Origin: an uncultured virus (IMG/VR IMGVR_UViG_3300028588_000812)
Taxonomy: Duplodnaviria; Heunggongvirae; Uroviricota; Caudoviricetes
DNA length: 64,000 bases
Reading direction: 5' to 3' (one strand)
IMG/VR virus record: IMGVR_UViG_3300028588_000812
The notes under the pieces are model-generated. The model did not search any database. It was not told the DNA's origin and worked only from the letters and a program-made list of their open reading frames with translations. Shown piece after piece: positions 11,674 through 57,684 of the stretch (positions are counted from its first letter, which is position 1; the number at the start of each line of letters is the position of its first letter). The translations under genes and the position numbers were made by a program.

Positions 11674-12903
11674 ATGGATGAAATACGTGCTGTAGAAATT
11701 TTCCAGCGCGCAATTGGAGAAGGCTGCTCTGACGTACATATCAAACCAGGTTCTCCACCCAAAATGCGTAAAAATGGAAAGCTTTTTGCTGTTCCAAGCT
11801 ATGAAAGCTATATTCTTGATGCTGATACTACATCGCGTCTTACGCAAGAAACAATGGATGAGCATGCATTCGCTCAATACAACGCACCTGACGTGAAACA
11901 ACTGGATTATTCTTTTGAAATCCCTCAAGTTGGTCGTTTCCGTATGAATGCATACCATACTCGTGGTGCTAACGCTTTTGTAGGAAGACTTTTACAAAAC
12001 AAAGCTAAGACATTAGATGAATTAGCTGTTCCTTCTGGTGTAAAAAAGCTAGCAAAATCAAAAAACGGCTTAATTATTGTTTCAGGTGCTACAGGTTCTG
12101 GTAAATCTACCACTATGGCTGGAATTATTGACTTCATTAATAACACTCAGCCAGTGAACATTATTTCTGTTGAAGACCCTATTGAAGTTGTGCACTCTGA
12201 TGCTATGGCTTCAATTGCTCAACGTGAAGTCGGCGTTGACGTTGATAGTTTTGAGTTGGCTTTGGAGTCTGCTTTACGTGAAGACCCTGACGTAATTCTT
12301 ATTGGTGAAATTAGAAGTTTAAAGACACTACAAACAGCTATCCTAGCTGCTGACACTGGCCACCTTGTTATTGCTACATTGCACACCACTGACGCTTCTA
12401 AAGCTATAAACCGTATCATTACTATGTATCCTAATGAAGAAAGAGATTTAGCGCGTCAGCAATTGGCCGCAGTTCTACGTGGAATTATTGCACAGCGTCT
12501 AGTACCTAACCTTGTTGGTGGAAGAACTGTTATCAATGAAATTCTTGTTAACACCCCAGAAATTGCACAGGCAATTGTAGATGAAGAACCAGAACAATTG
12601 TACCGTGATATTATTGACCGCTCTCCAAGCATGAAAAGCTTTGAACAACATTTCGTTGAACGCGTGGAAGCTGGTTTAGTTTCCTTAGATACAGCTAAAG
12701 AATATTCTAATGCTGAATATTACGAAAATGTGGAAGTTAAAGAACCTCATCGTAACAACCAGCATGTTATTGAATCTCCTGGTACTAAAAGTCTTCCACC
12801 TATTCCTGGTGGTTCTGCAAGAAATCCAGTACATAATAAACCACCTTTACCTACACGCCCAGCGCAACTTAAAGGTAAGTCTCCTAGCCAATTGCTAGGT
12901 TGA
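11674..12903 (+). CDS. pilT: type IV pilus retraction ATPase PilT/PilU family
   Basis: SDVHI, GATGSGKST, EDPIE, ALREDPDVILIGEIR, TGHLVIATLHT; Pro-rich tail. Confidence 0.9.
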   Translation: MDEIRAVEIFQRAIGEGCSDVHIKPGSPPKMRKNGKLFAVPSYESYILDADTTSRLTQETMDEHAFAQYNAPDVKQLDYSFEIPQVGRFRMNAYHTRGANAFVGRLLQNKAKTLDELAVPSGVKKLAKSKNGLIIVSGATGSGKSTTMAGIIDFINNTQPVNIISVEDPIEVVHSDAMASIAQREVGVDVDSFELALESALREDPDVILIGEIRSLKTLQTAILAADTGHLVIATLHTTDASKAINRIITMYPNEERDLARQQLAAVLRGIIAQRLVPNLVGGRTVINEILVNTPEIAQAIVDEEPEQLYRDIIDRSPSMKSFEQHFVERVEAGLVSLDTAKEYSNAEYYENVEVKEPHRNNQHVIESPGTKSLPPIPGGSARNPVHNKPPLPTRPAQLKGKSPSQLLG

Positions 12904-12966
12904 TAGAGATACACAACAATCATGTTTCCAGAAGAAACTAACAGAGAAAGGCACCAGTGAAATATC

Positions 12967-13212
12967 ATGTCTGCAACAAACCGCGATAGTATCCTTATAG
13001 GTCTTAACTATTTAGAAGCTGTCCTAAAAAACGATTACGATATGAAAACAGTAATTAAAGAAACAGTAAGTAAAGATGAACTTCTTCACGCTCTTACTTC
13101 TGTAGCTATGATAATGACTGGTGTAGCAACACGTGAAAACGCAACTGGCGAGACATATTTTGATACAATAGATAAAGCACGTCAAATTGCTTTAGGAAAA
13201 ACCGAAGCATAA
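12967..13212 (+). CDS. hypothetical protein
   Basis: 81-aa ORF following pilT. Confidence 0.6.
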   Translation: MSATNRDSILIGLNYLEAVLKNDYDMKTVIKETVSKDELLHALTSVAMIMTGVATRENATGETYFDTIDKARQIALGKTEA

Positions 13213-13230
13213 CATACAACAAGGAACATA

Positions 13231-13719
13231 ATGGGCAGGATAGCTAAACAAGCATTAGCTTTTATAATAGGGCTAGGAATAGTTGGCGGTTTAGTTTACT
13301 GGTCAATGGCGAGTAGTTTAAACGAGTTTAAATCCGCTAAAGCTAACCAAACCATTATGGAAATACATTCTACAGATATGCTTTGTGCCACATATGATAC
13401 AACCGAAAAATGTACTAAAACTTTTGAAGTAAAATCTACTGGTTCTTATACTGATTTAAAAGGTGTTAAACAAAAGTTAACGCCTGAACAAGTAACTGCT
13501 CTAAAAAAGCTTATCCGTGAAGCAGATTTTAGTATTTTACAACCAGGCGAGGGAACTTATTGCCATGCTAACAATGACATGCCACAAATAAGTTACTCTT
13601 TCAATACAATAGATGACCCAACCTGGTATGTTCCTTGCACATCAACAAATGCACGTTCGCTACCTCTATTCAATTTTATTGAACAGGAATTAAAACTTCC
13701 ATTAGATACTAAAGCTTGA
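13231..13719 (+). CDS. membrane-anchored or secreted protein
   Basis: N-terminal hydrophobic helix, 4 Cys, AAGGA SD. Confidence 0.7.
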   Translation: MGRIAKQALAFIIGLGIVGGLVYWSMASSLNEFKSAKANQTIMEIHSTDMLCATYDTTEKCTKTFEVKSTGSYTDLKGVKQKLTPEQVTALKKLIREADFSILQPGEGTYCHANNDMPQISYSFNTIDDPTWYVPCTSTNARSLPLFNFIEQELKLPLDTKA

Positions 13720-13752
13720 TAAAAGTATTTAGCTTGTGCTATACTTTTGTTT

Positions 13753-15445: not shown

Positions 15446-15585
15446 ACGATTGACCCAAGGCCCATAGTGACAGCAGTTGTTGCTAACATTGCGCCAAGCG
15501 CAATAAAAGCAGTAATTTTCATTACTCTTTGACGTTTAGCAAAAGCCGAAAGCTCTTGATTGTTTTTATTTTTCTTCTTGCTCAC
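15442..15585 (-). CDS. small basic single-pass membrane peptide (47 aa, not in ORF track)
   Basis: GTG-start frame MSKKKNKNNQELSAFAKRQRVMKITAFIALGAMLATTAVTMGLGSIV fills the gap after the lipoprotein gene. Confidence 0.55.
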   Translation of the reverse strand: MSKKKNKNNQELSAFAKRQRVMKITAFIALGAMLATTAVTMGLGSIV

Positions 15586-16300
15586 TTCTTATTTCCTGTC
15601 CTTGTGCTGGTTTGTTCTCTTTAGTCTTAACAGAATAACTTTCTGTTAACTGGTCTGCACCTATATTAAAGGTTTGTGTTAAATCTACTTTTTCTTGGTC
15701 AATTAAATTATCGGATACAATTACGTCTGCTCCCCATGTTGCTGAACTGCCAGGGTTTAGTTCCGCTTCAGGATTAACTGTCAAATCAGCAGGTACGTTA
15801 GGATAACCTAACATTGAGTGAAGAGCATAATCTGTGCTTACTGTTTTTAATTCCCCTGATGCGGATGTAACCGTTGACCAGTTAAATGTATTTAACTTTA
15901 TAGGGGAACTTCCATTATTAGTTAAAGTGTAACCAAGTGCAATAACACGTCTGTCTTTAACTAAATCAGTATCAGCTTCTGGCATAATTACATTGCCTTT
16001 ATCATCCAATTTAACTTCCGTAGAAACTGGTACGCCAGACTCTGCTACTTGTAATTCACTTTCTGTAGGGTAACCTGTACCTGCATAAAACACTTGTAAC
16101 TCAACACCATTAGAAAATGTGTTTGTACTAACAGGAACAGAGCTTCCGTTAGCTGTTGGGTTAACTAGAACTTCTTGAACTGCGGCAGTTTCAGAAGGTT
16201 CAGGTGTAGGTTCATTCGCACCGAAAAGCGAACACCCAGTCAACCCAACAGCTAACGATGACATTAAAGCCAAAGCAATAAAAGGTTTAATATTTCTCAT
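15566..16300 (-). CDS. lipoprotein
   Basis: start MRNIKPF at 16300, signal peptide with lipobox LTGC, PTPEPSET linker; TCCGATAT element 9 nt upstream. Confidence 0.8.
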   Translation of the reverse strand: MRNIKPFIALALMSSLAVGLTGCSLFGANEPTPEPSETAAVQEVLVNPTANGSSVPVSTNTFSNGVELQVFYAGTGYPTESELQVAESGVPVSTEVKLDDKGNVIMPEADTDLVKDRRVIALGYTLTNNGSSPIKLNTFNWSTVTSASGELKTVSTDYALHSMLGYPNVPADLTVNPEAELNPGSSATWGADVIVSDNLIDQEKVDLTQTFNIGADQLTESYSVKTKENKPAQGQEIRSEQEEK

Positions 16301-16301
16301 A

Positions 16302-18290
16302 CTATTTAATATCGGAGTTAGTTTTGTTTTTCTGGTAACAGTCATCACAAGTTTTAAACCAAGGCGCTGTAGGCTTGTTGCACTTAGCACATACACCTAA
16401 GCTAGAATTCTTAATTCCAATACTAAGAATTTTGATAATAGCATCCGTAATAATATCTTCTGCTTCACGTAATCTATTTTCATTTAGAGTACCTAACCAG
16501 CGAGTACCTTGCTTTTCTGTACCGAACATGACCATAGCCATTTTCAATTCTGCATTAATTTTGATTGCATGTTCAAGTGCTTCAATAGTATTAGCTGCTT
16601 CTTTGGCAGGCAAAGTCTTAGCAGACTTAGCCCATAACCATACATTGTCATTAAAGAAGCTACTTAGACGGTTACTCTCTTCACGGTATGGTGAACATAA
16701 CCATTCAGCAATTTGTGTCAAACTAGGTAAAGCAGAGTCATATGGACCTGAACCTAGTTGCCATAATTCATTAATGTCAACATTAAGGTTACTAGGATAA
16801 TCGTTGATATCAAAGATTTTACCTTCATTCCATGGTGCAGTTGGAATATGCAATGCATGCAAAATGGTCATAATGTTTTTACTAAGAACACTTAATGTAG
16901 CAGCTTCTAATGGCTCGTCAATTAATGTTTTGTTAGCAATGACCTGCCATTGGTAGATAGCTGGTAGTAGTTGTGAAGCTGCGACAGCACCACCATTAAT
17001 ATCTAAACCTAAATCATTTAATCTAGGCGCAATAATAGCAGTTTCTACATCTAAATCTGTAGGAGCTTTACCTGCTGCTGCGAGTACGGCTGTCTTAACT
17101 AAATCGCGGTCTTTAGATAGCCAAGGTAGACCTTCTCCAAGGTAAACGCTACCTTCTTCACTTAAACCAAAACGACCTGCACGCCCAGCAATTTGAGCGC
17201 CTTCCCAAATATGTAATGGTCGCACAGTTGAACCATCAAACTTTTCAGTTTGTGTGAATACAACATTATCAATAGGAAGGTTAATTCCATGACCAATAAC
17301 ATCAGTAACAACCATTACATCATATTTGCCATCTTCGTAAGCTTCAATTTGCTTTTTGCGTGCTTTAAGAGGTAAGTCACCATAAAGGATACCTACCTTA
17401 CGTCCTTTCTTTTGCAAGAAGTTAGCTACCGTATAAACAGATTTACGAGAGAAACACACAATAGCAGTTTTATTTGGAACTTTGGCAATATCTATCGTAC
17501 CTTTATAAACAATAGGCGTCTTACGTGTAAAGCTCTGGCTATCTGAATGCCATGCTTGACTTGTAAGTTTTTCTACTAAAGGTACTGCTTCCGCAGCAGT
17601 TAACCCATAAATATTTGTATAGTCTGTGCTGTAAAGAAGTTTTGTCCAGACATGACCTCTACTTGGCTCAGCAAGCCAGTGTGCTTCGTCAATTAAGATA
17701 GAATGACCTTCCGTGGGGGCCATTTCTGCTGTAGTTGCTAGTAGTTTAGCCTGTGGGTTAATTTGCTCTTCACCAGTAATGAACCCAACTTTGTCAGCAC
17801 CATAACGGTCAACCATTTTGTTATAAACTTCGAAAGCCAATAGACGTAAAGGCCCACAGTAAACATGTGTTTTGTCTGGGTTGTTGTCATAATCATGGAA
17901 CAATTGTTCTAATCCATTATATGTTTTGCCAGAGTTAGTAGGACCAACAAAAAGCATTGTTTTAGCAGGCTGACTTGTGCGACGACGAGTGTCAACAACT
18001 ATGTTGCTACGCAAACGTGCTTTAAGCTCTGCAACGTTCTTGCGGAAATTCTCTTCTTTAACTTCATCGCTAACTTTGTTAGCTTTTTCTTCTTCACGAG
18101 TTAATTTGATGATTGTTTTTAGAGCATTGAAATCATCAATAGAGATAGCCCATTTGCCGCGACTATTTTTAACTTTACCCACTTGGGCTTTGTTCATAAG
18201 TTCTGTAAACTCATGATTTTTTAAACCTAAACTTGTTGTAGCTGTATGTACAGTAATAATGTTTGGTTTTGAATTAGGAACTGAGGTCAT
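16302..18290 (-). CDS. Suv3-like SF2 helicase with C-terminal Zn ribbon
   Basis: GPTNSGKTY, YCGPLRLLAFEVY, ITGEE, DEAH, QIAGRAGRFG; CAKC...CDDC. Confidence 0.88.
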   Translation of the reverse strand: MTSVPNSKPNIITVHTATTSLGLKNHEFTELMNKAQVGKVKNSRGKWAISIDDFNALKTIIKLTREEEKANKVSDEVKEENFRKNVAELKARLRSNIVVDTRRRTSQPAKTMLFVGPTNSGKTYNGLEQLFHDYDNNPDKTHVYCGPLRLLAFEVYNKMVDRYGADKVGFITGEEQINPQAKLLATTAEMAPTEGHSILIDEAHWLAEPSRGHVWTKLLYSTDYTNIYGLTAAEAVPLVEKLTSQAWHSDSQSFTRKTPIVYKGTIDIAKVPNKTAIVCFSRKSVYTVANFLQKKGRKVGILYGDLPLKARKKQIEAYEDGKYDVMVVTDVIGHGINLPIDNVVFTQTEKFDGSTVRPLHIWEGAQIAGRAGRFGLSEEGSVYLGEGLPWLSKDRDLVKTAVLAAAGKAPTDLDVETAIIAPRLNDLGLDINGGAVAASQLLPAIYQWQVIANKTLIDEPLEAATLSVLSKNIMTILHALHIPTAPWNEGKIFDINDYPSNLNVDINELWQLGSGPYDSALPSLTQIAEWLCSPYREESNRLSSFFNDNVWLWAKSAKTLPAKEAANTIEALEHAIKINAELKMAMVMFGTEKQGTRWLGTLNENRLREAEDIITDAIIKILSIGIKNSSLGVCAKCNKPTAPWFKTCDDCYQKNKTNSDIK

Positions 18291-19603: not shown

Positions 19604-20452
19604 CTATACATACGCAATAATAGTATACACCATAAGTACAGTTGTGCTCAGAGTTAATGCCGGTAATAGGATAACTTTTTCAAAAGTACCGTCAGCACGA
19701 ATTCTCATGAAAGCTGGTAAAGCAACATCATACCATCTTTTACCTCTAACCTTGATAGGCCAAGCCATTGGGACACCCATTTTTGTAATAGCGTCACCAA
19801 GAAGATGGATAAACCAACCAAATGCAACACCTATACCAAGGTAAGCATATGTCCCACCAAAACCTGGAATTTCAAGACCAAAAGTGCTATCTTCTGGTGA
19901 AGGAATAAACAATGCAATTAACGCAGCTAAAGCTAATGAGCCTACCATAAGAAGATAAGGTCCATATTTTTTACGTGCTTTTTTAATTTGGTGTTCTAAC
20001 AATCCACCTAAAGCTAAGTTGATATAGATGGAAAGAAGAATAATAGCGTTAAGTTGACCTAAAGTATATTCACGGCCATATAGCTCAACAATGTTTGTTG
20101 GCAACGTAGCTAAGAATGTGACCACACCAGCTATCAGAGCAACCGCTGTAGTATGGAACAGCGTTCGGTGACCATCAGATTTAGCTTCTTCTCTCCGCGT
20201 CTTAGTAAGATTATAAACTGCTACGCTTAGCGAGTTAGCAATAATATGGAAAATTCTTCCAAAAATACCAAATGAGTTTACTACTGTTGAACGACCAGAA
20301 TCAATGTCAGGAGCAAGCGCTGCTCCGGCTGCTACAACTGTTCCCATAATGGCGACGGTTGGATGAACTGGTGCGACTGCTGCTGAATACCATGCTATAC
20401 CAGCCAAAGCTGCTGTTGCACCACTTAAAGCGTGCGTTGGTCCCATTACCAT
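19604..20452 (-). CDS. metal-dependent membrane hydrolase (YdjM/DUF457-like)
   Basis: MGPTHALSG, APDID, HRTLFHT, HLLGDAITKMGVP; multiple TM helices. Confidence 0.85.
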   Translation of the reverse strand: MVMGPTHALSGATAALAGIAWYSAAVAPVHPTVAIMGTVVAAGAALAPDIDSGRSTVVNSFGIFGRIFHIIANSLSVAVYNLTKTRREEAKSDGHRTLFHTTAVALIAGVVTFLATLPTNIVELYGREYTLGQLNAIILLSIYINLALGGLLEHQIKKARKKYGPYLLMVGSLALAALIALFIPSPEDSTFGLEIPGFGGTYAYLGIGVAFGWFIHLLGDAITKMGVPMAWPIKVRGKRWYDVALPAFMRIRADGTFEKVILLPALTLSTTVLMVYTIIAYV

Positions 20453-20832: not shown

Positions 20833-21705
20833 TTAGCAGGTTGCAAGCATTTCACGTAATGCAGCAGCATCAGCTTCTGTAATACTTAATTGCCATTTGG
20901 ATGCAACAGTTGTCCAGCTTTTAGCATACTCGCAGTAATAACCTGTATCACTAGGTTTCCACTCTGACGGACCTTGGTCAGATTTGGAGCGATTTTCACC
21001 AGCAGAAACTGCAATCAAATGAGTTCCTTCAAGATTATTTGCATAATCTTGTTTCTTTTGTTTGTCCCATCCTTGTCCACCATGTTGAGCGGTGTAACTA
21101 AGAGGTATCATATGGTCAATATCTAAACTACGAGGGTTAGTAATTTCTTTGCCACTGTAAAAATCTACCCATTTGCCGCCTTTGATTTCACATGCGCTAT
21201 TGATATCAGTAGTAGGGTTACCCTGTTTATCTACTAATTCTAGTTCAACAGCATCACGCGCTAAAACTTGTTCACGAACCGTCCAGCAAGAACGAACATC
21301 AATCCAGTGGTTCCATTCATCACGGTCATAAGAAATTTTATCTGGGTTAGCTATCCTTATAGCAGATAAATTGGTATCAGCAGTGCCTTTGTCTACACCT
21401 GAGCTACCTTTTCCGCCTTCTTCGTATTTGTCAATACCTTCGCCGGGAGAAGGATTACTTGGGCTGTCTCCACCTTCAATAACATCTTTAACTTTATCGC
21501 TTACGCTAGGAGCAATACCTGTAGCCCATTGCTTAACACTTTCAGTTTTACTTTGAAGAATTTCAATAATACCTTTAGCACCTGGGTCATAAGGGATTTG
21601 GAAAAAGGCAAAGATAAGTCCAGCTACAACAAAAAACCATACTACTTTGTCAGTGGTTCCACCACCGCGTCCGCCACCTGAGCTTCTTCTAGACCTGTTA
21701 GCCAT
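20833..21705 (-). CDS. membrane-anchored extracytoplasmic HNH nuclease (DUF1524-like)
   Basis: N-terminal TM; YDRDEW, REQVLARD, LDIDHMIPLS, ANN...LIAVSAGENRSKSDQGPSEWKP, YCEYA. Confidence 0.85.
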   Translation of the reverse strand: MANRSRRSSGGGRGGGTTDKVVWFFVVAGLIFAFFQIPYDPGAKGIIEILQSKTESVKQWATGIAPSVSDKVKDVIEGGDSPSNPSPGEGIDKYEEGGKGSSGVDKGTADTNLSAIRIANPDKISYDRDEWNHWIDVRSCWTVREQVLARDAVELELVDKQGNPTTDINSACEIKGGKWVDFYSGKEITNPRSLDIDHMIPLSYTAQHGGQGWDKQKKQDYANNLEGTHLIAVSAGENRSKSDQGPSEWKPSDTGYYCEYAKSWTTVASKWQLSITEADAAALREMLATC

Positions 21706-41997: not shown

Positions 41998-42021
41998 ATA
42001 TATTATCGCCTTATTTAAAAC

Positions 42022-42065
42022 AAAAGGTGGGGTTTCTCACATTTCTGTAAGAAACCCCACCTTTT
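42022..42065 (-). terminator. terminator after pilin operon
   Basis: aaaaggtggggtttct / agaaaccccacctttt. Confidence 0.7.
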
Positions 42066-42071
42066 AGTTAT

Positions 42072-45290: not shown

Positions 45291-45319
45291 ACATTATATA
45301 TATCGGTTAAAATTTCGAA

Positions 45320-46624: not shown

Positions 46625-46635
46625 TTATAAAATCC

Positions 46636-47289: not shown

Positions 47290-47299
47290 ATCAAAATAT

Positions 47300-47347
47300 A
47301 TATCGGTAAAAAGAAAAAGACCTCGTTTACTGAGAAAATGCCGATAG
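47300..47347. promoter_or_regulatory. divergent pair of sigma28/WhiG-type -10 elements (pilin operon on minus, sigma gene on plus)
   Basis: tatcgg 47301-47306 (minus) and GCCGATAG 47340-47347 (plus). Confidence 0.65.
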
Positions 47348-47379
47348 CTCAGTGTAGAGGAGCTACCCCCATCGTAAAT

Positions 47380-48120
47380 ATGTCCAAACCATCTGAAGAA
47401 GAGCAAGAACGTACCGCTGCATTGTGGGCAGAATATAAGTCTGTACCTACATCACGTTTACGTAACATTCTTGTCGAAAAATATACGCCATTAGTGCATA
47501 AAATTGCTGGAACTTTTGCCCACAAAAAGCCATCTGTGTTAGATTACGATGATTTAGTGCAAGCTGGGCGTATGGGTTTACTTGATGCAATAGAGAAATT
47601 TGACCCTCAAAACGAGCGTAAAGCTCAATTCCAAACTTATGCCACTTTCCGTGTGCGCGGCGCTATTCTTGACGAAATAAACTCAATGGATTGGACCCCA
47701 CGTAGCGTCAGGCAAGATATTAAAGAAGTTCTTAGAAGTATCGAAAAGCATTATTCCAAAACATCTTTAGAGCCTACCGTGCAAGATATAGCAAAATCAG
47801 CAAATCTTGACAAAGAACGAACCAGAATTATTCTTAGCCAAATGGATAAAACTTATGTTGTCCATGTAGACAATGACATTATTGATATTGTTGGCCCCAC
47901 AACTGACCATGCAAAATCAGAGCTAGAAAGTATTATTAGCATTGCAATGGACAAAGTTCTAACGCCCCTTGAAAAATCTTTTGTTCAAATGAAATACTTC
48001 ATGGGATACAATAATAAAGAAATACAAGAGGCGCTAGAACTAAAAGTCAGCGAACTTAAACATGTCAGAGATTCAGCTATTGTTAAACTTAGTGCAGAGC
48101 TAGAAAACCCTATCAACTAA
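47380..48120 (+). CDS. FliA/WhiG (sigma28)-family RNA polymerase sigma factor
   Basis: RNILVEKYTPLV, DDLVQAGRMGLLDAIEKFDP, FQTYATFRVRGAILDE, DWTPRSVR; likely start MSKPS. Confidence 0.92.
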   Translation: MSKPSEEEQERTAALWAEYKSVPTSRLRNILVEKYTPLVHKIAGTFAHKKPSVLDYDDLVQAGRMGLLDAIEKFDPQNERKAQFQTYATFRVRGAILDEINSMDWTPRSVRQDIKEVLRSIEKHYSKTSLEPTVQDIAKSANLDKERTRIILSQMDKTYVVHVDNDIIDIVGPTTDHAKSELESIISIAMDKVLTPLEKSFVQMKYFMGYNNKEIQEALELKVSELKHVRDSAIVKLSAELENPIN

Positions 48121-48123
48121 TAA

Positions 48124-50214
48124 TTAGTGTTGCCCTCCACTAACAAGAATTAGAAGATAATCCTGAACAAATTCTTTCCATTCTTTCGAGCCTGAACGGT
48201 TCTCTATTGTCTGGGATGCTTTAAGTTCACTAAGTTCAATTAGTAACTCAGCAATTTCCCCTACAAGCTTATCGCCCTCAGCTTTAAAATCAATAGACAT
48301 TAAGAATGACCCTGTAGCTTGCATGGAAGGGCAACCTTCTTCAATTTCTATTTCAAAATCATTCTCCTGAACATCACCTTCTGAATTAACTTCACTTTCA
48401 AGTGTAGTGAAAAGTTGTTCAATAAAGTAAGGAAGAACTGTTTGATTGACAGTAAGCATGCTTAATGCATCCTTAGACCATTCTTCTTGAATAATGGCAT
48501 GCCCCAAACGGTGAAGCAAATGAGATAGACCGGTGTTAAGAAGAACATTAATATCATAGAACTCAGGGCTAATATTAGATTTAGTTAAACCAGCAGTGTA
48601 TAGCTCTGTGAAGAACTTCTCACCATCCTTTTCAGGTAGATGACGTACACCTTCTGTATATGTCCATGCAAGAGATTCATTGGGGAAGCTCACACCACGA
48701 ATTAAACATCCAATTGGATTAATATTTACAGTAGTTGAAGATACAATAGTATTTAACCTTGCATAACGTACAGCTAATGTAATTAATTTAGCAATAACAA
48801 TTTCAGATACGTTAGATGGTGTATCTTTAAGTTCAACTTTACCTGACGCCCAATCTTGTTCATATAGAAGAGGCATGTTAATAGTGTTCACAAGTGGACG
48901 CATTGCTTCTGGAAGGTTCTCAGAAGTAATCTCAGAAGAATAGTAATGAACAATTTCTTCGATTGATGAGTTCAAGCCTGGTGGAACAACAAAGTTAAAT
49001 AAAGATTTCTCTTTTTCTTCTGAGATAATTTCATTGAAAGCTTCATTCATGCCTGTCTCAGCAAATAATGCATCTACAGCGTTAATCTCTTGGAGATATT
49101 CCATACCATTCATATCATCTTGCATGATGGATGCAATATTTGATGGAGACATAAACACATAAGCTCTGTCAATGGCTTCTGCTAAATAACATAGTTCTAC
49201 ATCATTAGGTGTTGGTTTAGCGGTACGGTCACCAGAAGTTCTTCTGGCGACAACACTGTTGGCTTTTTTAATAGGGTTAATGTAACTAAAACTTTTAACT
49301 AAAGCATCAGTTGAACCGCTTGCCATTTTGACAACAAGAGAAAGCATTTCACCGCGTAGACGACCCATAGCTTCGGTAGAAATGTTCATCTGGTACATTC
49401 CTGTAATACTCTGCATTAAGGACGCTGTAGCCTCAAAATAGGCCGCTGTATCAGGGTATGGGTAGTCTAGTAACATAAAGTTATCAAGTGACAACTCAGG
49501 ATATTTACGCTCTGCATTTAATTCATCGTACTCTTTTTCAGAGATAACAATAAAAGCAGGAGAGTTTGAGCTTACGTAAAGAGTTTTAGCGATATGAGCT
49601 TGAACTAAAGGAACAGTAACTTTGTAAGATGTTAAATCATTTTGCTCAGGGATTTCTTCTAAGTTGTTAAGAAGAACGCCAGCTAAAGCTTGGAAACCAT
49701 CTTGGTTGTCTTCAAAGTTGATTTCACCATACTCTTCATCGTCTTCATCATAGTATTCTTCGTCGTCTTCGTCAGTGTCATCACCATCGTTGTCATGTGC
49801 TGCATCTGCGAGGATTTCTTCATCTAATGGTAACTCATCTTCATCAACTTCAAATGGTTCTAGTTTGCCATTTTCGTTAACGATAGAGTTGTTTACGATA
49901 TCACCAAAAACATGTTCTAAAGTATATGGTGGTAGAACCATATGTTGTGTTAGCTCAATGGTTTCTTTATTGTTAATGTTACGAAAAATAAGGTCCGCTT
50001 TAGTAGGGTTACTTTTTTGAGGAACTACATCTGTAATAATAAGGCGTTCTGTAATTCCTAGCTTCTTAGAAAACTTTTTGAAGTTAGGGGTATCTTTCGC
50101 AACCAGACATACGCATGCCAATTTCTGGCCACTTACGTTAACATGAATAGTTTCAATTTTACTTAACGTAAGTTGGAAGATTTTTTGTTCAGGTTTTGAT
50201 TGATCATTAGCCAT
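48124..50214 (-). CDS. large acidic hypothetical protein
   Basis: 696-aa ORF, GGAG SD. Confidence 0.75.
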   Translation of the reverse strand: MANDQSKPEQKIFQLTLSKIETIHVNVSGQKLACVCLVAKDTPNFKKFSKKLGITERLIITDVVPQKSNPTKADLIFRNINNKETIELTQHMVLPPYTLEHVFGDIVNNSIVNENGKLEPFEVDEDELPLDEEILADAAHDNDGDDTDEDDEEYYDEDDEEYGEINFEDNQDGFQALAGVLLNNLEEIPEQNDLTSYKVTVPLVQAHIAKTLYVSSNSPAFIVISEKEYDELNAERKYPELSLDNFMLLDYPYPDTAAYFEATASLMQSITGMYQMNISTEAMGRLRGEMLSLVVKMASGSTDALVKSFSYINPIKKANSVVARRTSGDRTAKPTPNDVELCYLAEAIDRAYVFMSPSNIASIMQDDMNGMEYLQEINAVDALFAETGMNEAFNEIISEEKEKSLFNFVVPPGLNSSIEEIVHYYSSEITSENLPEAMRPLVNTINMPLLYEQDWASGKVELKDTPSNVSEIVIAKLITLAVRYARLNTIVSSTTVNINPIGCLIRGVSFPNESLAWTYTEGVRHLPEKDGEKFFTELYTAGLTKSNISPEFYDINVLLNTGLSHLLHRLGHAIIQEEWSKDALSMLTVNQTVLPYFIEQLFTTLESEVNSEGDVQENDFEIEIEEGCPSMQATGSFLMSIDFKAEGDKLVGEIAELLIELSELKASQTIENRSGSKEWKEFVQDYLLILVSGGQH

Positions 50215-51702: not shown

Positions 51703-54507
51703 ATGGCTGTAGAATATAAACTTTCAAGTGATGCACCACGTTCTATTATTATAGAAGGTGAAGGAACTTTAACACCGTTCGTAGAATATATGGACGGTAC
51801 AATTGTAGAAACATTTGAAGGTGAACTATGCGAAATTCCTTTTACCCAAGAGAATGCTACTAAGTTACGTAACTTCCTTAGAGGTAAAGATTACGAAATT
51901 CCACCCCGAGAAAGAGCTATTTTAGCTCATCTGGCAGACAACCCAGACTCGCTTAATGACAAAGACCTACGCTGGACCATCAAATTAACTGATTTACAAG
52001 TTAACGTACTTGCCAAAAAGTATGCAAAAATTAAAACTGAATGGGATTTAGTTCACTATTTGCCTTTGCGTTATTTAGACAAAAGTAACCCACAATCTGT
52101 TTCTGAGCTAATCATAGGTCAATGGGCTGTTGTTAGTGGAACTGTTGTGGCGGTAGAACCTAACCATCAACATGATTTTGTAAAAATTGTTGTTGCAGAT
52201 ATTAAAAGCCAACGTATCGCAGCTACATTTTTCCGCCAAAAATGGTTAGCATGGCAGTTTAAAGAAGGCGATGAAGTAGTTCTATACGGAAATTACTCTG
52301 AATATGTCAACAAACGTAACCAACGCACTTTCCCTCAAATTACTAACCCAAAAATTGATAAAATCAAATCCATAAAAGATAATGGATATGGAATGATTCC
52401 AATTTATCCACAAAAATCAGAAGACAAATCTTGGGCTTTAAAAGTTGCACAAGAAAACTTGCTTTCCAAAATAGTATGGATTGAAGATCCAGTTCCTGTA
52501 CCAATTTTAAAGAAATATAATCTTATTTCACGTACAGAAGCATATAAGAAAATTCATTTCCCTGATACTCGTGAAGAAGTTGAAGCCGCAAGACGTAGGA
52601 TTGCTTTTGACGAATTCGTAAGATTACAAGTTTACATTGCAAACCGCAGAGAAGACTTAGGTGAAAACACTGCTAGCGCAAAAAGGGAAACCAAATGGGC
52701 TGACAATTTCACTAGTTCGCTTCCTTTTGATTTTACTGGAGCGCAAACACGTGTAATTGGAGAAATTCTTACTGACTTAGCTTCTAATACACCTATGTAT
52801 AGGTTATTACAAGGTGACGTAGGTTCTGGAAAAGCTTTACCTTTAGATGCCTTAGTCCTTACACCTAAAGGTTACCGCAAAATGGGTAGTCTCAAACCAG
52901 GTGATATTGTTGTTACTCCTAATGGTGGCATTACAACAATTACGCATTTCTTCCCACAAGGAAAACGTCCCATTTACAAGCTTGTATTCTCTGATGGTAC
53001 AAGCGCTAGAGCAGACCAAGAGCATCTTTGGAAAGTACAGGAAGAGCTAAACGGAGAAAGTGAATTATTACCTTCCCGTTTGATGACAACTAATGATTTA
53101 ATTAAAAATGGTTTAACTGTATATGGTGGAAGTACACCTAAATGGCATATTCCTCAACCTAACATGGATATCATTTCATCTTATGTTCCTCATACTGAAA
53201 ATCATAAAGTTAAAGGTGCGACAAAGCAGATTGTTTCTATTACATTTGAAGGTCAAGAGTTAGCTGCTTGTATTAAACTTTTGAATAGCGAAGGTTTGTT
53301 TATCACTAATGATTATACTGTTACCCATAATACTGAAATTTCAAGTGTTGCAACATTAGCTGCTGTCGAAAGTGGATATCAAGTTGCTTTGTTAGCTCCA
53401 ACAGATATTTTGGCTACTCAACTTTATGAGCGTCTTACAAAAACTTTCCGTAAAGCTGGTGTTACTGAACAGCAACTTAAATTAGGTTTATTCAACGGAC
53501 GTGTTTTAGGTAAAAAACGTACCACTCTTCTTGAAGAGTTAAAGAATGGTGATATTAACGTTATTGTAGGAACTCATGCTTTGTCGCAAAAATATGTTGA
53601 ATTTAAAAACTTAGGTTTAGCTATTGTTGACGAACAACATAAATTCGGTTCTGCTCAACGTTCAGCGTTACGTAAAATTAATGCTGATGGAAGTACCCCA
53701 GACATGTTAGCTATGTCTGCTACTCCTATCCCTAGAACAACATCACAAATTATTTTTGGTGACATGGATATTAGTATTGTTGATGAACTTCCCGCTGAAC
53801 GTATTCCAATTAAAACAGAATGGCATGAAACACCTGACGAAGCATGGGTTAAAGTTCGTGAAGAAGTAGAAAAAGGTCATCAAGCTTACATTGTTACAGC
53901 ATTAGTTGACGAAAGCGAAAGCGAAAAAATGGCTGATGTGGAATCTGCTGTACAAACACATCTTGCTTTACAGAACAACGTTTTCCCTGAAATGACCATT
54001 GGTTTGTTACATGGTAAATTAAGTCGTGATGAAAAAGCAGAAGTAATTGATAAATTCTATAAGAATGAAATTCAAGTTCTTGTTGCAACAACCGTTGTTG
54101 AAGTTGGTGTTAACGTACCTAATGCTACTGTTATGACAATTCTTAACGCTAATCGTTTTGGTATTGCCTCCCTTCATCAAATCCGTGGTCGTGTTGGTCG
54201 TGGTGCTTTTGCCTCATACTGTTATCTTGTTGGTGAAGCTACAGTTCCAGAAGCAGAAGAAAGATTGAATGCTTTAGTGTCATCTAATGACGGTTTCTGG
54301 CTAGCCGAAAAAGACCTCGAAATTCGCGGAGAAGGTTCATTATTTGGGCGTTTACAATCCGGTGATAGCGATTTATATGTCGGTAATTTGAAAGAACACA
54401 AAGACCTTCTAGAGGTAGCAAAGAAAGTAGCAAAGCAAGCAAAGAAATCTGTTCTTCTTAACGCGGAAGTAAAAATGCTCTACAAAGACAAAACTATCTT
54501 AGCGTAA
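51703..54507 (+). CDS. recG: RecG DNA helicase containing an intein
   Basis: wedge OB domain, RLLQGDVGSGK|T, APTDILATQ, DEQHKFG, MSATPIPRT, LHQIRGRVGRG, DLEIRGEG. Confidence 0.95.
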   Translation: MAVEYKLSSDAPRSIIIEGEGTLTPFVEYMDGTIVETFEGELCEIPFTQENATKLRNFLRGKDYEIPPRERAILAHLADNPDSLNDKDLRWTIKLTDLQVNVLAKKYAKIKTEWDLVHYLPLRYLDKSNPQSVSELIIGQWAVVSGTVVAVEPNHQHDFVKIVVADIKSQRIAATFFRQKWLAWQFKEGDEVVLYGNYSEYVNKRNQRTFPQITNPKIDKIKSIKDNGYGMIPIYPQKSEDKSWALKVAQENLLSKIVWIEDPVPVPILKKYNLISRTEAYKKIHFPDTREEVEAARRRIAFDEFVRLQVYIANRREDLGENTASAKRETKWADNFTSSLPFDFTGAQTRVIGEILTDLASNTPMYRLLQGDVGSGKALPLDALVLTPKGYRKMGSLKPGDIVVTPNGGITTITHFFPQGKRPIYKLVFSDGTSARADQEHLWKVQEELNGESELLPSRLMTTNDLIKNGLTVYGGSTPKWHIPQPNMDIISSYVPHTENHKVKGATKQIVSITFEGQELAACIKLLNSEGLFITNDYTVTHNTEISSVATLAAVESGYQVALLAPTDILATQLYERLTKTFRKAGVTEQQLKLGLFNGRVLGKKRTTLLEELKNGDINVIVGTHALSQKYVEFKNLGLAIVDEQHKFGSAQRSALRKINADGSTPDMLAMSATPIPRTTSQIIFGDMDISIVDELPAERIPIKTEWHETPDEAWVKVREEVEKGHQAYIVTALVDESESEKMADVESAVQTHLALQNNVFPEMTIGLLHGKLSRDEKAEVIDKFYKNEIQVLVATTVVEVGVNVPNATVMTILNANRFGIASLHQIRGRVGRGAFASYCYLVGEATVPEAEERLNALVSSNDGFWLAEKDLEIRGEGSLFGRLQSGDSDLYVGNLKEHKDLLEVAKKVAKQAKKSVLLNAEVKMLYKDKTILA
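52834..53331 (+). mobile_element. 166-aa mini-intein starting with Ala, probable class 3
   Basis: ALPLDALVLTPKG...HLW...AACI...VTHN|T inserted in the Walker A motif. Confidence 0.9.
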
Positions 54508-55624: not shown

Positions 55625-55643
55625 TCTTTTACATTTAATACTT

Positions 55644-55691: not shown

Positions 55692-55695
55692 GTTT

Positions 55696-56154
55696 TTAAC
55701 TATACTGTTCAGTGGTTTCTTGAACAAAGCTAGGGCAAACTCCTTCTTTGACTTCTTTACTAGTTAAAGAATAGTAAACCCTATAAGTTTCGCCTCCAAT
55801 AACGCTGTTTGCTTCTACACAGAATTGGCGAGTGTTGTTATCTCCCCATTCACCTGTTCGCAAAACAATGTTAGTTTGACTGTTAGACCTGATACGAATT
55901 TTACTATCAAACTCAGCAGTAGTTGGAACAGCGTTATATGCCTCTTGATTCTGCTGCCATTGAGACAAACTTTGGGCAGAAGATGTTAAATCTGTTTGAA
56001 CTTGTGCTCTAATAGCAGTTTTCTTTTGTTCAAGATATGCGGGTATCGCAATAGCAGTTAAAATGCCAATAATTAAGATAACAGCACAAAGTTCAATTAA
56101 GGTGAAACCCTCTTCTGAACGCAAATGCTTAATATCACGTAAACTCTTACTCAT
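55696..56154 (-). CDS. type IV pilin (PilA/PilE-like)
   Basis: EEG|FTLIELCAVILIIGILTAIAIPAY with E5; C-terminal Cys pair. Confidence 0.9.
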   Translation of the reverse strand: MSKSLRDIKHLRSEEGFTLIELCAVILIIGILTAIAIPAYLEQKKTAIRAQVQTDLTSSAQSLSQWQQNQEAYNAVPTTAEFDSKIRIRSNSQTNIVLRTGEWGDNNTRQFCVEANSVIGGETYRVYYSLTSKEVKEGVCPSFVQETTEQYS

Positions 56155-56185
56155 AATACTATTATCGGCATTATGAGTAAGAGTT
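56142..56185. promoter_or_regulatory. 16-bp perfect inverted repeat enclosing a GCCGATAA -10 element and overlapping the pilin start codon
   Basis: aactcttactcataat-[actattatcggc]-attatgagtaagagtt. Confidence 0.75.
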
Positions 56186-56195
56186 CCGTATTAGA

Positions 56196-57005
56196 TTAGC
56201 CTCTGTAGCTTTTTTCTTGCTGTTCAAGTACAGCATCACGACGATTAACTTTTGAAGGCTCAATGAAACCATCGCCAACAATTGAACGCAAACGGTCAAA
56301 CGCACGAGGACCAATCCATCTATTTAATTGGTCAGGTGTTAAGTTAGTTGTAATAAGTAAAGTCAACTGATGAGTATAAATATGGTCAATAAGCTCAAAC
56401 CATACTTCAGTTCTCTTTTGTGCATCAGAGAAGAAACCTTGACCTACATCATCAATGAAATAGATTTTGTTACGGTCATTAAATAACGCTTCAAGTAGCT
56501 CTGGTTTTTTGTAACCTGAAACGGTAATTTTGCCTAAAACACCAGTTTCAGTATCATTAACAATCTGTCCAGCAGTCACAATACCAGCAGCAATAGCCAT
56601 ATTGATATATGCATAGCAACCCCAAGACTTTCCTACACCCATATTTCCGTGGAACACAAGTGAAGTTTTGTGAAGACCTTTACCTTGATTAAGTCTAGAG
56701 ATACGGTCCTTCACAACAGGATGGTCTACTGTAGCGCCAGCAAACGTTGCCCCTACACGCTTCTTCCAGTCCTCTACAGAGCGTTCAATGCGTTCATGGT
56801 TAACCTTATCAACAACTAGTCTATCTTTGTTGAGAGAGCGTCTGAGGCGTTCAGAGTATTCAACATCAGAGACTTCTTCTTTCACTCTTTCAGTTTTATC
56901 TTTAAAAATTTTATCTGCACGACGAGCCGCACGCACTTTAGCGTCGTGAGTTTCTTGGACTAAAGCTTCCAGTTCAGCTTTTTGACGATCATTAAAATTT
57001 TCCAT
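56196..57005 (-). CDS. DnaC/IstB-like AAA+ ATPase
   Basis: GNMGVGKS, YFIDDVG, LITTNL, RAFDRL; likely start MENFN with GGAG SD; GCCGATAT at 57048-57055. Confidence 0.8.
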   Translation of the reverse strand: MENFNDRQKAELEALVQETHDAKVRAARRADKIFKDKTERVKEEVSDVEYSERLRRSLNKDRLVVDKVNHERIERSVEDWKKRVGATFAGATVDHPVVKDRISRLNQGKGLHKTSLVFHGNMGVGKSWGCYAYINMAIAAGIVTAGQIVNDTETGVLGKITVSGYKKPELLEALFNDRNKIYFIDDVGQGFFSDAQKRTEVWFELIDHIYTHQLTLLITTNLTPDQLNRWIGPRAFDRLRSIVGDGFIEPSKVNRRDAVLEQQEKSYRG

Positions 57006-57096
57006 GTTGACTCCATTATACACAACTACTACTTTTATCTCCTATAAATATCGGCTTTACTTCCAAAAAGCCCAAAATAATGATACAATAACAAAT

Positions 57097-57684
57097 ATGG
57101 ATAAAAGTAAAGTAAAACCTGCAAAAGAAAACTCTACAAGAAAATTTGTAACTTTGCTTTTAGCGTTCACACTACCTTTCGCATCAATTCTTACAGTGCA
57201 ACATTTTTGGTTAAATAACTTCTATGTGCCCTCTGCAAGCATGGAAACAACCCTTATGACTAAGGACCGTGTTTTTGCTACTGTAACAAATGATAACTTT
57301 ACACCAGAACGTGGAAACATTGTTGTTTTCAATGATATTCAAGGTTGGCTAAACCAATCACAATATCCTACAGAAGATAAGCTCGTTAAAAGAATTATTG
57401 GTTTACCTGGTGATACTATTTCTGCTGATGAAAACGGCAACGTTATTATCAATGGGGAAATAATTGATGAACCATATATTAAACAAGGCGCAACAACTGC
57501 TGAGTTCCCTGAACAAAAAGTACCAGAAGGTCATGTATTTGTTATGGGAGATAACCGTGAAGCTTCCGCTGATTCACGATATCATATTGCACAAGGGAAA
57601 CAATTTATTGCTATCTCAGATATTCAAGCCCAAGTTGCATTTAGATATTGGCCTTTAAATAAAATTGGACCTGTTCCCAACTAA
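57097..57684 (+). CDS. lepB: signal peptidase I
   Basis: VPSASMETTL, DRV, VKRIIGLPGD, VMGDNREASADSR; start MDKSK 7 nt after TGA-TACAAT. Confidence 0.92.
   Translation: MDKSKVKPAKENSTRKFVTLLLAFTLPFASILTVQHFWLNNFYVPSASMETTLMTKDRVFATVTNDNFTPERGNIVVFNDIQGWLNQSQYPTEDKLVKRIIGLPGDTISADENGNVIINGEIIDEPYIKQGATTAEFPEQKVPEGHVFVMGDNREASADSRYHIAQGKQFIAISDIQAQVAFRYWPLNKIGPVPN

Follow-up and report, generated by a model that had tools for sequence, protein, structure and literature searches.

PilT on a giant phage-like element with pilin and FtsK-like genes behind a common promoter-like motif: a possible pilus-assisted DNA transfer apparatus

Introduction

Why would a replicon that is filed as a tailed-phage genome carry genes for a retractile pilus together with a gene for a membrane-anchored DNA pump? 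The question is raised by a stretch of DNA from the uncultured virus record IMGVR_UViG_3300028588_000812 of IMG/VR, which was analysed at its full length of 64 kb and is referred to here as the window. Genes for a PilT-type ATPase, for type IV pilins and for an FtsK/TcpA-like ATPase lie in it among phage-like genes of DNA metabolism, and an earlier interpretation, made from the letters alone (the sequence-only reading), had proposed that they form a self-sufficient, pilus-assisted DNA transfer system of a monoderm host on a poorly described kind of giant element. The results presented here identify most of these genes, place the pilin and FtsK-like genes behind one promoter-like motif and find their relatives on contigs of up to 0.9 Mb. 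A pilus-plus-translocase transfer apparatus is a tentative explanation of this arrangement, which is weighed below against a huge phage and against other possibilities.

Pilus genes of the window

The window has a G + C content of 0.35-0.41 (0.38 overall) and is densely coded, and about half of its open reading frames (ORFs) match no family. The family scans took ORFs of at least 80 aa (64 with Pfam, 50 with PHROGs and 25 with NCBIfam), and the resulting features are collected in Table 1. The first component of a retractile pilus that had been named, PilT, is upheld by a family score above cut-off and by a profile search of the PDB, in which the closest solved structures are PilT (244 bits) and PilB reaches about 90 bits. 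Four stretches are invariant in 18 relatives (G138-K144, E167-E171, D204-E212 and T228-H237), and we take these to be the Walker A, Asp box, Walker B and His box. The AIRNLIRE motif of canonical PilT does not occur in the window protein; the aligned place reads TPEIAQAIVDEE (PEIAQAIVDE), much like the TPRLAEAIADPD found there in a Nocardioides PilT. A metagenome scan with patterns general to PilT returned 80 ordinary PilT loci and a single related one, L020 (47% identity, on a 240-kb contig). When IMG/VR was scanned with PilT or the FtsK-like protein as a single query, no relative was returned, and the PilT alignment gave distant matches only.

A class III signal (Gly at -1, Glu at +5, a short basic leader and a hydrophobic helix) is present in three ORFs, at 42072-45290, 46636-47406 and 55696-56154; a fourth match to the pattern, in a nested ORF of 45 aa, was taken as chance. 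The last of the three is the PilA-like pilin of the sequence-only reading, and it is confirmed as such, with an N_methyl score equal to the Pfam gathering score of 21.2 bits and a TIGR02532 score above cut-off. This major-pilin-like protein has two cysteines at its C-terminal end and matches the 'pilin' moron family of PHROGs (phrog_3433, E 1.5e-7); its matches to ComP_DUS (E 0.0023) and ComGC (E 4.9e-7) are weak and stay under the cut-offs. The minor-pilin operon that had been likened to pilV-pilX-pilW is present as an operon of four genes, one of which encodes a giant pilin. Its PilV-like member, which probably starts at the internal ATG at 47292, stays below the cut-offs of both N_methyl (18.5-18.8 bits) and the PilV family TIGR02523 (E 1.3e-4), and its PilX-like member is a lead from Atlas clusters for which Pfam gives nothing useful (the Tad family at E 0.23 only). 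In the giant pilin, G16, L19, V20 and E21 are nearly invariant across 17 homologues. Its structural model (predicted local distance difference test, pLDDT, 77.5) has a helix from residue 19 to 46 and a small head of alpha/beta type, behind which beta-sandwich domains follow in a chain, and Foldseek returned only multi-FN3/Ig arrays when searched with it; the family has 27 matches in 5.8 billion cluster representatives. For the bitopic protein at the end of the operon, Pfam and NCBIfam give no family.

How would such pilins be matured? The candidate is a protein with nine transmembrane segments that itself matches no family in Pfam or NCBIfam. Foldseek with its model and a search of PDB sequences with its family profile both gave nothing, and the alignment of the model (pLDDT 93.2) with FlaK 3s0x_B (Z 6.9, root-mean-square deviation 4.1, 148 residues aligned, rank 28) lies inside the noise band for helical models. 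Its family comprises 24 representatives among 1.84 billion proteins. Across 22 of these sequences D86, in AYTDxxVxKVP, and G229 and D232, in GGAD, are invariant; PF01478 (Peptidase_A24) is matched by 8 of the 22 (best E 1.7e-5), and every other family by at most one. The protein is probably a divergent A24-type peptidase. The claim that the locus has its own prepilin peptidase is confirmed in part, by the invariant D86 and D232 and the PF01478 matches of the family. The small ORF beside it had been called an Flp-like pilin, a label that finds no support here: Pfam gives nothing at E of at most 1, including the Flp family PF04964, and the motif G/xxxxE[YFW] followed by a hydrophobic run is absent in all six frames. 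The proposed signal peptidase I is matched by both PF10502 and TIGR02227 (Table 1) and has the stretches SM..., KR..GLPGD and GDNR..S.DSR.

Table 1. Features of the 64-kb window and the evidence for them. L and G numbers denote relatives described in the text; a slash in a pilin motif marks the cleavage position.
Feature	Coordinates	Strand	Evidence or remark
PilT/PilU-family ATPase, 409 aa	11674-12903	+	TIGR01420 pilT_fam 368.6 bits, cut-off 319.1 (NCBIfam)
YdjM-like membrane metal-dependent hydrolase	19604-20452	-	PF04307 64.8 bits
Membrane-anchored HNH/GmrSD_C nuclease	20833-21705	-	PF07510 42.8 bits; transmembrane segment at residues 17-35
FtsK/TcpA-like ATPase, 708 aa, three transmembrane segments	21759-23885	-	PF01580 FtsK_SpoIIIE 67.1 bits, cut-off 24
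SSB	23967-24416	-	PF00436 96.5 bits; same place relative to FtsK-like gene in L088 and Rhodococcus plasmid
Conserved 591-aa protein, first gene of module	25281-27056	-	Homologues in L088, L126, G003, G004
Coiled-coil protein	31563-32936	-	Weak coiled-coil/SMC-type matches only; CCGATAT ends 31 nt before ATG
Divergent A24-type (GxGD-like) prepilin peptidase candidate, nine transmembrane segments	34614-35633	+	Invariant aspartates in family
Small ORF beside peptidase, 81 aa, single transmembrane segment	35705-35950	-	CCGATAT ends 42 nt before ATG, Shine-Dalgarno-like stretch between
Bitopic protein, 398 aa, end of pilin operon	40801-41997	-	Strong N-terminal transmembrane segment; covered by RNA-library contigs
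Giant pilin, 1072 aa	42072-45290	-	N_methyl 24.2 bits; FN3 match (Pfam)
PilX/DUF7305-like protein, 434 aa	45320-46624	-	N-terminal transmembrane segment; Atlas DUF7305/PilX_N clusters, score 0.97, lead only
PilV-like minor pilin, 218 aa from internal ATG	46636-47292	-	EEG/LTVVE class III motif
FliA/WhiG-family sigma factor	47338-48120	+	Subfamily putative; divergent from pilin operon; Sigma70_r2 52 bits
Major-pilin-like type IVa pilin, 152 aa	55696-56154	-	EEG/FTLIE; N_methyl 21.2 bits, equal to cut-off; TIGR02532 22.5 bits, cut-off 16.3
Signal peptidase I (S26)	57004-57684	+	PF10502 126.4 bits; TIGR02227 123.8 bits, cut-off 47
Phage-like DNA metabolism genes	window		Rnl2-type RNA ligase, PNKP, ThyA, DHFR, C5 methyltransferase (Pfam)
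Phage-like DNA metabolism genes, further	window		YqaJ-DEDDh exonuclease, Suv3-like helicase, SSB, SbcCD, DnaC-like loader (Pfam)
CCGATA[AT], starts	2180, 14679, 54512	+	
CCGATA[AT], lowest coordinates	57048, 56162, 51630, 47300, 45300 (45300-45306), 35993, 32968, 23896, 16309, 15708	-	
CCGATA[AT], the 12 copies preceding a gene	2180, 14679, 16309, 23896, 32968, 35993, 45300, 47300, 51630, 54512, 56162, 57048		

An FtsK/TcpA-like ATPase in a conserved module

Three transmembrane segments and the PF01580 match support the FtsK/TcpA-like membrane ATPase that the sequence-only reading had named, and no variation occurs among 30 relatives at its Walker A and Walker B columns; its last third, towards the C-terminus, is rich in proline and has no match. 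When the family profile was compared with the PDB, chains named 'DNA translocase coupling protein' (6o1z at 138.5 bits and 6o1w at 138.2 bits, with 6o1x also present) ranked above FtsK (117.5 bits), and type VII EssC-type ATPases reached 52-56 bits. On the strength of the molecule name and of the accessible text of a review that cites a TcpA structure from pCW3 under the code 6OZ1, these chains appear to be TcpA. The chromosomal FtsK equivalog PRK10263 scores 72 bits against a cut-off of 1566.

The neighbouring nuclease had been described as membrane-anchored, which agrees with its one transmembrane segment and its GmrSD_C/HNH match; the nuclease domain is predicted to lie probably outside the cell. 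The FtsK-like alignment, run against GTDB, gave a single contig with synteny, L088 (49,970 bp, from the bin of a Polynucleobacter metagenome-assembled genome), which shares the FtsK-like protein, SSB, a RuvC-like protein, the 591-aa protein, YdjM and the window proteins w29175 and w19096. The gene of the YdjM-like hydrolase has the FtsK-like gene in its vicinity in three settings: L088, the IMG/VR relatives and a Rhodococcus plasmid (37% identity). The 591-aa protein has no family in Pfam, PHROGs or NCBIfam and no match in deposited phages, and its Atlas scores of 0.76-0.77, with a template-modelling score below 0.5, are not usable; homologues stand next to SSB and FtsK in five Rhodococcus plasmids.

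What kind of replicon carries this module in isolates? The Rhodococcus pyridinivorans plasmid NZ_CP096039.1 (331,002 bp, circular, G + C content 0.635) has, in this order, a 557-aa homologue of the 591-aa protein, SSB, FtsK/SpoIIIE, a second FtsK-like ORF, two small ORFs and a metal-dependent hydrolase, which mirrors the order of 591-aa protein, SSB, FtsK-like protein and YdjM-like hydrolase in the window. The likeness covers 9 of the 64 window proteins and is seen also in RecG (43%), SbcCD, the DnaC-like protein and the DEDDh exonuclease. The shared order and homologues therefore indicate that the FtsK-like module is common to replicons that isolates keep as plasmids. The plasmid differs from the window in its G + C content (0.635 vs 0.38) and in the low identities of only 25-43%. 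Its annotated conjugal-transfer cluster lies about 150 kb from the FtsK module, and tblastn found no PilT or pilin homologue in it.

A promoter-like motif shared by pilin and FtsK-like genes

Do the pilin genes and the FtsK-like gene, which lie apart in the window, belong to one system? The sequence CCGATA[AT] occurs in 13 copies, 12 of which are followed within 3-45 nt by the ATG of a same-strand ORF of 60 aa or more. For 179 permuted motifs used as a control the mean fraction was 0.10, and none with at least eight matches reached 0.8. The genes behind the motif include those of the major pilin (7 nt from the end of GCCGATAA to the ATG), the giant pilin (9 nt), the PilV-like protein (10 nt) and the FtsK-like ATPase (CCGATAT, 10 nt), and further those of the coiled-coil protein, the small ORF beside the peptidase, a protein with three transmembrane segments, w54555 and the DnaC-like protein; the motif also redefines the starts of w2194, w14693 and w15566. 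PilT is preceded, at a distance of about 47 nt, by the variant GCCGATAG, and in L020 GCCGATAT ends 8 nt before the ATG of the PilT gene. In relatives the motif stands before ORF starts in four of five cases in L020, in four of seven in L088 and in 16-27% in distant relatives.

The spacings fall into two classes, such that about half are of 7-12 nt with no Shine-Dalgarno stretch and the others are of 25-42 nt with one. The short class implies leaderless transcripts, and such promoters hint that the host translates leaderless mRNA well. The motif corresponds to the -10 element of sigma-28/SigD promoters. Only this -10 part is enriched: the full pattern TAAA-N14-16-CGATA gave one match in the window where 1.83 were expected, and no conserved -35 was found upstream of the motifs. 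The window encodes two sigma-like proteins, and one of them is a putative FliA/WhiG-family sigma factor for which TIGR02479 is the best-fitting subfamily (139.3 bits, cut-off 189.6) and WhiG PRK06288 scores 152.7 bits (cut-off 343). The motif ties the pilins and the FtsK-like ATPase, and by its variant PilT, into one putative expression class, and this is the strongest new support for treating the three as one system.

A giant element of plant-litter communities

How large is the replicon of which the window is a part? An identical FtsK-like protein belongs to a cluster found on nine Joint Genome Institute contigs, the longest of 787,832 bp, and a 708-aa member of the same cluster lies on a contig of 791,407 bp. 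Contigs of relatives measure 603,234, 617,315, 696,453, 715,573/725,246/728,514 and 884,011/885,359 bp, and such close agreement between separate assemblies suggests that the replicons are complete at 0.6-0.9 Mb. The window is best read as part of an extrachromosomal element of giant size, about 0.79 Mb, and the two contigs with the FtsK-like protein bear out the earlier suggestion of a giant replicon that fits no described class. On the basis of equal longest-contig values across clusters, PilT, the giant pilin and the FtsK-like protein appear to travel together in relatives: all three are assigned to the 617,315-bp contig (80, 76 and 74% identity for PilT, the FtsK-like protein and the giant pilin, respectively), PilT and the FtsK-like protein to that of 696,453 bp, PilT and the giant pilin to one of 60,888 bp, and the FtsK-like protein and the giant pilin to contigs of 62,684 and 43,568 bp.

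The region 40801-50214 is complete in three leaf-litter metagenome runs, possibly its source, and 11 straw metagenome runs of a different year contain about 80-82% of its sampled words. One straw run yielded a single contig of 62,209 nt at depth 121 that spans the 19.9 kb compared with 102 differences. The same region is present in six leaf-litter RNA libraries at 50-63% of sampled words, and in each of three runs the longest RNA-library contig falls on the giant pilin gene; as these libraries may hold DNA, their contigs prove no transcription and rank no expression, and the gaps between them (for example at 53.3-54.6 kb in some runs) are no evidence of silence.

Among 50,697 records of deposited phages there is no close relative, a 12-kb megablast query remained unmatched, IMG/VR holds nothing closer than 48% identity, and the accessible text of the literature searched contains no description of this lineage. 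The host is a separate matter. A monoderm had been proposed, and this is not established: the G + C content of the relatives spans 0.38-0.635, and the transfer-messenger RNA (tmRNA) tag of the relative G004 described below, ANSDNFALAA, looks proteobacterial.

Distant relatives

IMG/VR contigs of 89-438 kb carry the FtsK-like protein at 41-48% identity, and five of them (G001-G005, 345-438 kb, filed as viral with 100% CheckV completeness) were examined in more detail. Secretion ATPases of the T2SSE family occur in all five, with one to seven matches each. In four, two T2SSF platform genes surround an ATPase of about 570-640 aa, and in all five an AAA_10 ATPase of about 400 aa (111-179 bits) lies inside the secretion-ATPase cluster, which in G003 and G004 also contains a ParA-like ATPase. 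Secretin and PF01478 were matched in none of the five, and N_methyl in two of five at sub-threshold scores only. Six-frame searches for virion genes, whose controls were positive in known genomes, gave no match in any of the five for PF03237/PF17289 (Terminase_6N/6C), PF05065 (Phage_capsid), PF04860 (Phage_portal) or PF04984 (Phage_sheath_1).

G004 (420,240 bp, 55-bp terminal overlap, G + C content about 0.56) has counterparts of 18 of the 64 window proteins (22-43% identity) and encodes a full replisome, ribonucleotide reductase and RecA/UvsX-like, Lon-like, rIIA-like, PhoH and Dda-like proteins. Its 232 ORFs of at least 200 aa, taken without nested ORFs and three small boundary-crossing ones, show no capsid, portal, sheath, tube, baseplate or full-length terminase when compared with PHROGs. 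The same comparison of 85 ORFs of at least 300 aa in G003 (nine boundary-spanning and three nested ORFs omitted) shows no capsid, portal, sheath or full-length terminase. The rows labelled 'terminase' in both genomes read as short P-loop or intein stretches of other ATPases, and none of four conserved rRNA primer sites is present in either. G003, the IMG/VR record behind L175, has a perfect inverted terminal repeat of 110,183 bp and a 107-kb segment with a G + C content of 0.53 (0.42 elsewhere), and is probably a chimeric or fold-back assembly despite its completeness rating of 100%. TnpB/IS605-type transposases (phrog_506) number at least 11 in G004 and at least six in G003 among the ORFs scanned.

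Comparison with known systems

Which described system does this set of genes resemble? Like TcpA of the Tcp system of Clostridium perfringens pCW3, the window protein has an N-terminal membrane anchor and an FtsK-like motor; unlike TcpA, it is encoded amid replication genes, and no TcpF/VirB4, TcpH, TcpC or TcpM-type partner is seen in the window. According to the accessible text of a 2025 review, TcpA is closer to FtsK than to TrwB and may move double-stranded DNA, TraB of Streptomyces moves double-stranded DNA without other parts of a type IV secretion system (T4SS), and transfer of PAPI-1 requires type IV pili. The lone membrane FtsK-like ATPase as candidate exporter, the many small membrane proteins and the lack of a visible relaxase in the window recall the TraB/Spd arrangement of Streptomyces. 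The two differ in that plasmid_TraB stays below cut-off here and no winged-helix/clt recognition part is found, in that Streptomyces uses no pilus, and in their hosts (G + C content 0.38 here). PAPI-1 is likewise a mobile element with its own type IV pilins and peptidase, which serve cell contact during DNA transfer, a role proposed here for the window genes as well. Type IV pilus-assisted conjugation is also the task of the R64 thin pilus. Both PAPI-1 and R64 have type IVb pili, a canonical T4SS, a relaxase and a VirD4-type coupling protein, whereas the window has type IVa-like pilins, PilT and an FtsK/TcpA-like candidate pump.

The relatives also recall Tad systems, with their ATPase of about 570-640 aa between two T2SSF genes (four of five) and the ParA-like ATPase of G003 and G004, as does the candidate A24-type peptidase beside a small hydrophobic ORF in the window. 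They differ from Tad in the extra AAA_10 ATPase of the cluster and in the missing secretin (none of five); in the window the small ORF fails both the Flp family and the Flp motif, and the clear pilins are type IVa-like and accompanied by PilT. Huge phages are comparable in size class, phage-type DNA metabolism, inteins and possession of their own sigma factors, and in the tRNA array and tmRNA of G004. The differences are that neither the window nor any of the five relatives has a terminase, capsid, portal or sheath family, that there is no relative in deposited phage records, and that contigs of 787-885 kb exceed the record quoted. This record, 735 kb, is the maximum phage genome size given in a 2026 jumbo-phage review, in whose accessible text the words pili, pilin, FtsK and secretion system do not occur.

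A possible transfer apparatus and its alternatives

We hypothesize that the element replicates with its phage-like DNA metabolism genes while its FliA/WhiG-type sigma factor reads CCGATA[AT] before envelope genes, which would be those of the major pilin, the minor-pilin operon with the giant pilin, the small hydrophobic protein and the FtsK/TcpA-like ATPase, with PilT joining through the variant motif. The A24-type peptidase would mature the pilins, an extension ATPase and a platform protein from elsewhere on the element or from the host would assemble the filament, and the giant pilin would tip or decorate it. Once the filament had attached to another cell, retraction by PilT would draw the envelopes together, and a hexameric FtsK/TcpA-like pump would export element DNA, probably double-stranded, across the donor membrane, with the outward-facing HNH nuclease and the YdjM hydrolase as possible envelope or DNA-processing factors. 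This reading, in which a giant and possibly capsid-less element carries a transfer apparatus made up of pilus and translocase, may be correct, and we place it somewhat short of probable. The earlier claim of FtsK-driven, pilus-assisted transfer finds support in the TcpA-like ranking in the PDB, the common motif, the co-occurrence in relatives and the relatives' secretion genes; plasmid_TraB below its cut-off stands on the other side, and DNA export is something that we infer from the genes.

Several observations weigh against a transfer apparatus. The pilus cannot be called self-sufficient, as had been claimed, because no extension ATPase or platform protein is encoded in the window: T2SSF/PilC, PilB, a second T2SSE, the alignment proteins PilM/N/O, VirB4 and a relaxase are all missing among its 64 ORFs, and no oriT/clt-like site was seen. 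The sequence-only reading had itself noted that relaxase, VirB4, PilB/PilC, capsid and terminase are not visible, and the Pfam and PHROGs scans agree with it on this point. In the relatives the one relaxase family searched, PF03432, was matched in none of five. The FtsK-like protein scores 23.7 bits with plasmid_TraB of NCBIfam against a cut-off of 800, its only Pfam match is PF01580, with none to alpha, gamma (KOPS-reading) or winged-helix domains, of which the lack of the last two counts here, and its gene is placed amid replication and repair genes (SSB, RuvC-like) away from the pilus genes. Homologues of the nuclease (37%) in G003 and G004 do not adjoin the FtsK-like gene. The relatives are only 22-48% identical to the window proteins, so that their lack of virion genes may not hold for the element of the window. 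Phage-like traits of window and relatives (inteins, homing endonucleases, RNA ligase with PNKP, filing as viral in IMG/VR) point the same way, as do the array of 44 tRNA genes for all amino acids followed by the tmRNA at 340001-360600 of G004 and the 'tail protein', 'endolysin' and 'transglycosylase' rows of its PHROGs comparison, which count toward a phage and which we read as cell-wall hydrolase domains. The presence in RNA libraries carries the limits given above, and a common temporal class would fit a phage programme equally well.

The main rival is a huge phage that has its virion genes elsewhere on the element, diverged beyond detection in the relatives, and that uses its pilus genes in host takeover. 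Its pilins, PilT and peptidase would remodel or retract host pili, for example to block superinfection by way of pilus receptors or to alter adhesion or twitching, and its FtsK-like ATPase would act in genome segregation, concatemer handling or packaging. We judge this rather unlikely, while giving weight to the phage-like DNA metabolism set, to relatives filed as viral and rated fully complete, and to the 44 tRNAs and tmRNA of G004 with its rIIA-like, PhoH, Dda-like and UvsX-like genes and lysin-type matches. FtsK/SpoIIIE-like genes are found, moreover, in 396 deposited phage records at about 28-32% identity, the major pilin matches the moron family phrog_3433, and phages classically time their programme through a sigma factor of their own that has promoters dedicated to it. 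Would a phage lineage leave no trace of its virion? Terminase, capsid, portal and sheath families are matched in none of five relatives and in none of the scanned ORFs of G003 and G004, and neither the 50,697 deposited phage records nor IMG/VR contain a close relative. Down to about 40-50% identity PilT, the giant pilin and the FtsK-like protein stay associated, which is not typical of morons, the Rhodococcus plasmid has the conserved gene order too, and 787-885 kb exceeds the 735-kb maximum in the accessible text of the 2026 review. If the element were a phage after all, none larger would be known, and no phage before it would have had PilT, pilins and a peptidase of its own as a conserved set.

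The other explanations differ in what they make of the pilus and the pump. A giant plasmid-like replicon might carry the pilus set as an accessory trait of its host, for twitching or for adhesion to other cells or to plant polymers by means of the FN3-rich giant pilin, and use the FtsK-like protein only to resolve or segregate itself, with no transfer. This is unlikely: the habitat of decaying leaf litter and straw, the resemblance of the giant pilin to the long FN3/Ig stalks of adhesins, the embedding of the FtsK-like gene with SSB, RuvC-like and other replication and repair genes, and the distance of about 150 kb between FtsK module and conjugal-transfer cluster in Rhodococcus would suit it, and it is opposed by the one motif for pilins and FtsK-like gene, by an FtsK-like protein that is nearer to a conjugative coupling protein than to chromosomal FtsK and in which no gamma domain was found, and by the relatives' AAA_10 ATPase within the secretion-ATPase/platform cluster. 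Somewhat less likely again is a competence-like uptake or scavenging of DNA, in which the pilus would bind DNA, PilT reel it in, the outward-facing nuclease cut or degrade it and the FtsK-like protein pull it inside, feeding the nucleotide demand of a 0.8-Mb replicon. The ComG pilus with a NucA/EndA nuclease may offer a parallel in competence, and the window has the retraction ATPase, the pilins, a membrane nuclease with a predicted external domain, an abundance of nucleotide salvage and synthesis genes (ThyA, DHFR) and a major pilin with weak, sub-threshold ComP_DUS and ComGC matches. Pfam matched no ComEC, ComEA, ComFA or DprA family in the window, the nuclease is unlinked to the FtsK-like gene in G003 and G004, and FtsK-type pumps export or segregate DNA and are not known to act in uptake. 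That the contigs of 0.6-0.9 Mb are the chromosome of a very small cell, for example an ultra-small episymbiont using type IV pili, is highly improbable. Signal peptidase I, SSB, RecG, sigma factors and an IF3 C-terminal domain in the window would be at home there, and yet its 64 kb contain no tRNA, no Rfam family at gathering score and, in Pfam, no ribosomal protein or aminoacyl-tRNA synthetase family. The IF3 gene consists of the C-terminal domain only (101 aa), the four conserved rRNA primer sites are missing in G003 and G004, and the FtsK-like protein scores no more than 67 bits with PF01580 and lacks both alpha and gamma domains.

Each component of the proposed transfer apparatus is of a known kind, and the combination and its carrier are not described in the accessible text of the literature searched. 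More doubtful than the apparatus itself is the wider idea of a lineage of capsid-less giant elements of 0.6-0.9 Mb that have retained phage-like replication and tRNA genes and are spread by a sigma-28-type regulon, a retractile pilus tipped by the giant FN3 pilin and a double-stranded DNA pump without a relaxase or T4SS, and possibly intermediate between huge phages and megaplasmids. If the reading of a transfer apparatus holds, replicons that exceed in size every phage genome reported so far (735 kb at most) are abundant in plant-litter communities (depth 121 in one straw run, and presence in RNA libraries), escape current classification of both viruses and plasmids, and may use a pilus-plus-FtsK route of transfer that would go unnoticed by current conjugation detectors, which rely on VirB4 and a relaxase. 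The CCGATA[AT] promoter class with the element's own sigma factor provides a direct experimental handle, and the cultured Rhodococcus megaplasmids provide a tractable model for the SSB-FtsK-hydrolase module.

Further features of the window

The family-matched ORFs are mostly of phage-type DNA metabolism in the Pfam scan of 64 ORFs, and the interleaving of such genes that had been noticed is confirmed by matches to RNA ligase, ThyA, DHFR, PNKP, SbcCD, RecG, SSB and exonucleases. Neither Pfam nor PHROGs gives a real match to capsid, portal or terminase families in the window; the PHROG 'terminase' and 'tail' rows of PilT, the FtsK-like protein and the giant pilin appear to reflect P-loop or FN3 overlap only. 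The DivIVA-like scaffold of the sequence-only reading (31563-32936) could not be substantiated, as the DivIVA family is not matched at E of at most 0.01 and coiled-coil matches are all that was found.

Two replication/repair genes, at 27196-29043 and 51703-54507, are interrupted by inteins or Hint domains, the exonuclease (Intein_splicing 43 bits) and RecG (a weak Hint_2 match); in relatives inteins are found in secretion ATPases and DNA polymerase. The IF3 C-terminal domain stands alone at 24465-24770 (65.9 bits), between SSB and the RuvC-like gene, and is possibly a modulator of translation initiation, of interest beside the leaderless-type promoters. The ORF at 15566-16396 probably starts at an internal Met (244 aa) directly after CCGATAT and has a signal-like transmembrane segment and a weak AmoB/cupredoxin-like match (E 4.6e-4) below cut-off.

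Three tandem paralogues at 60912-61592, 61656-62327 and 62391-62996 encode small membrane proteins, and the first two have an identical N-terminus over 29 residues (MLECINVLVDCKINMSKLITEQDYSDELT), which indicates a recent duplication. Another pair of paralogues, at 716-2086 and 2194-3252, has an N-terminal C..PGPRCS motif and no known family, and homologues of these two adjoin PilT in the 240-kb relative L020 (12459-15031). The proteins at 9448-11475 and 58122-58778, of unrelated length, share an (N)xYHDxxGRFCS motif at the N-terminus.

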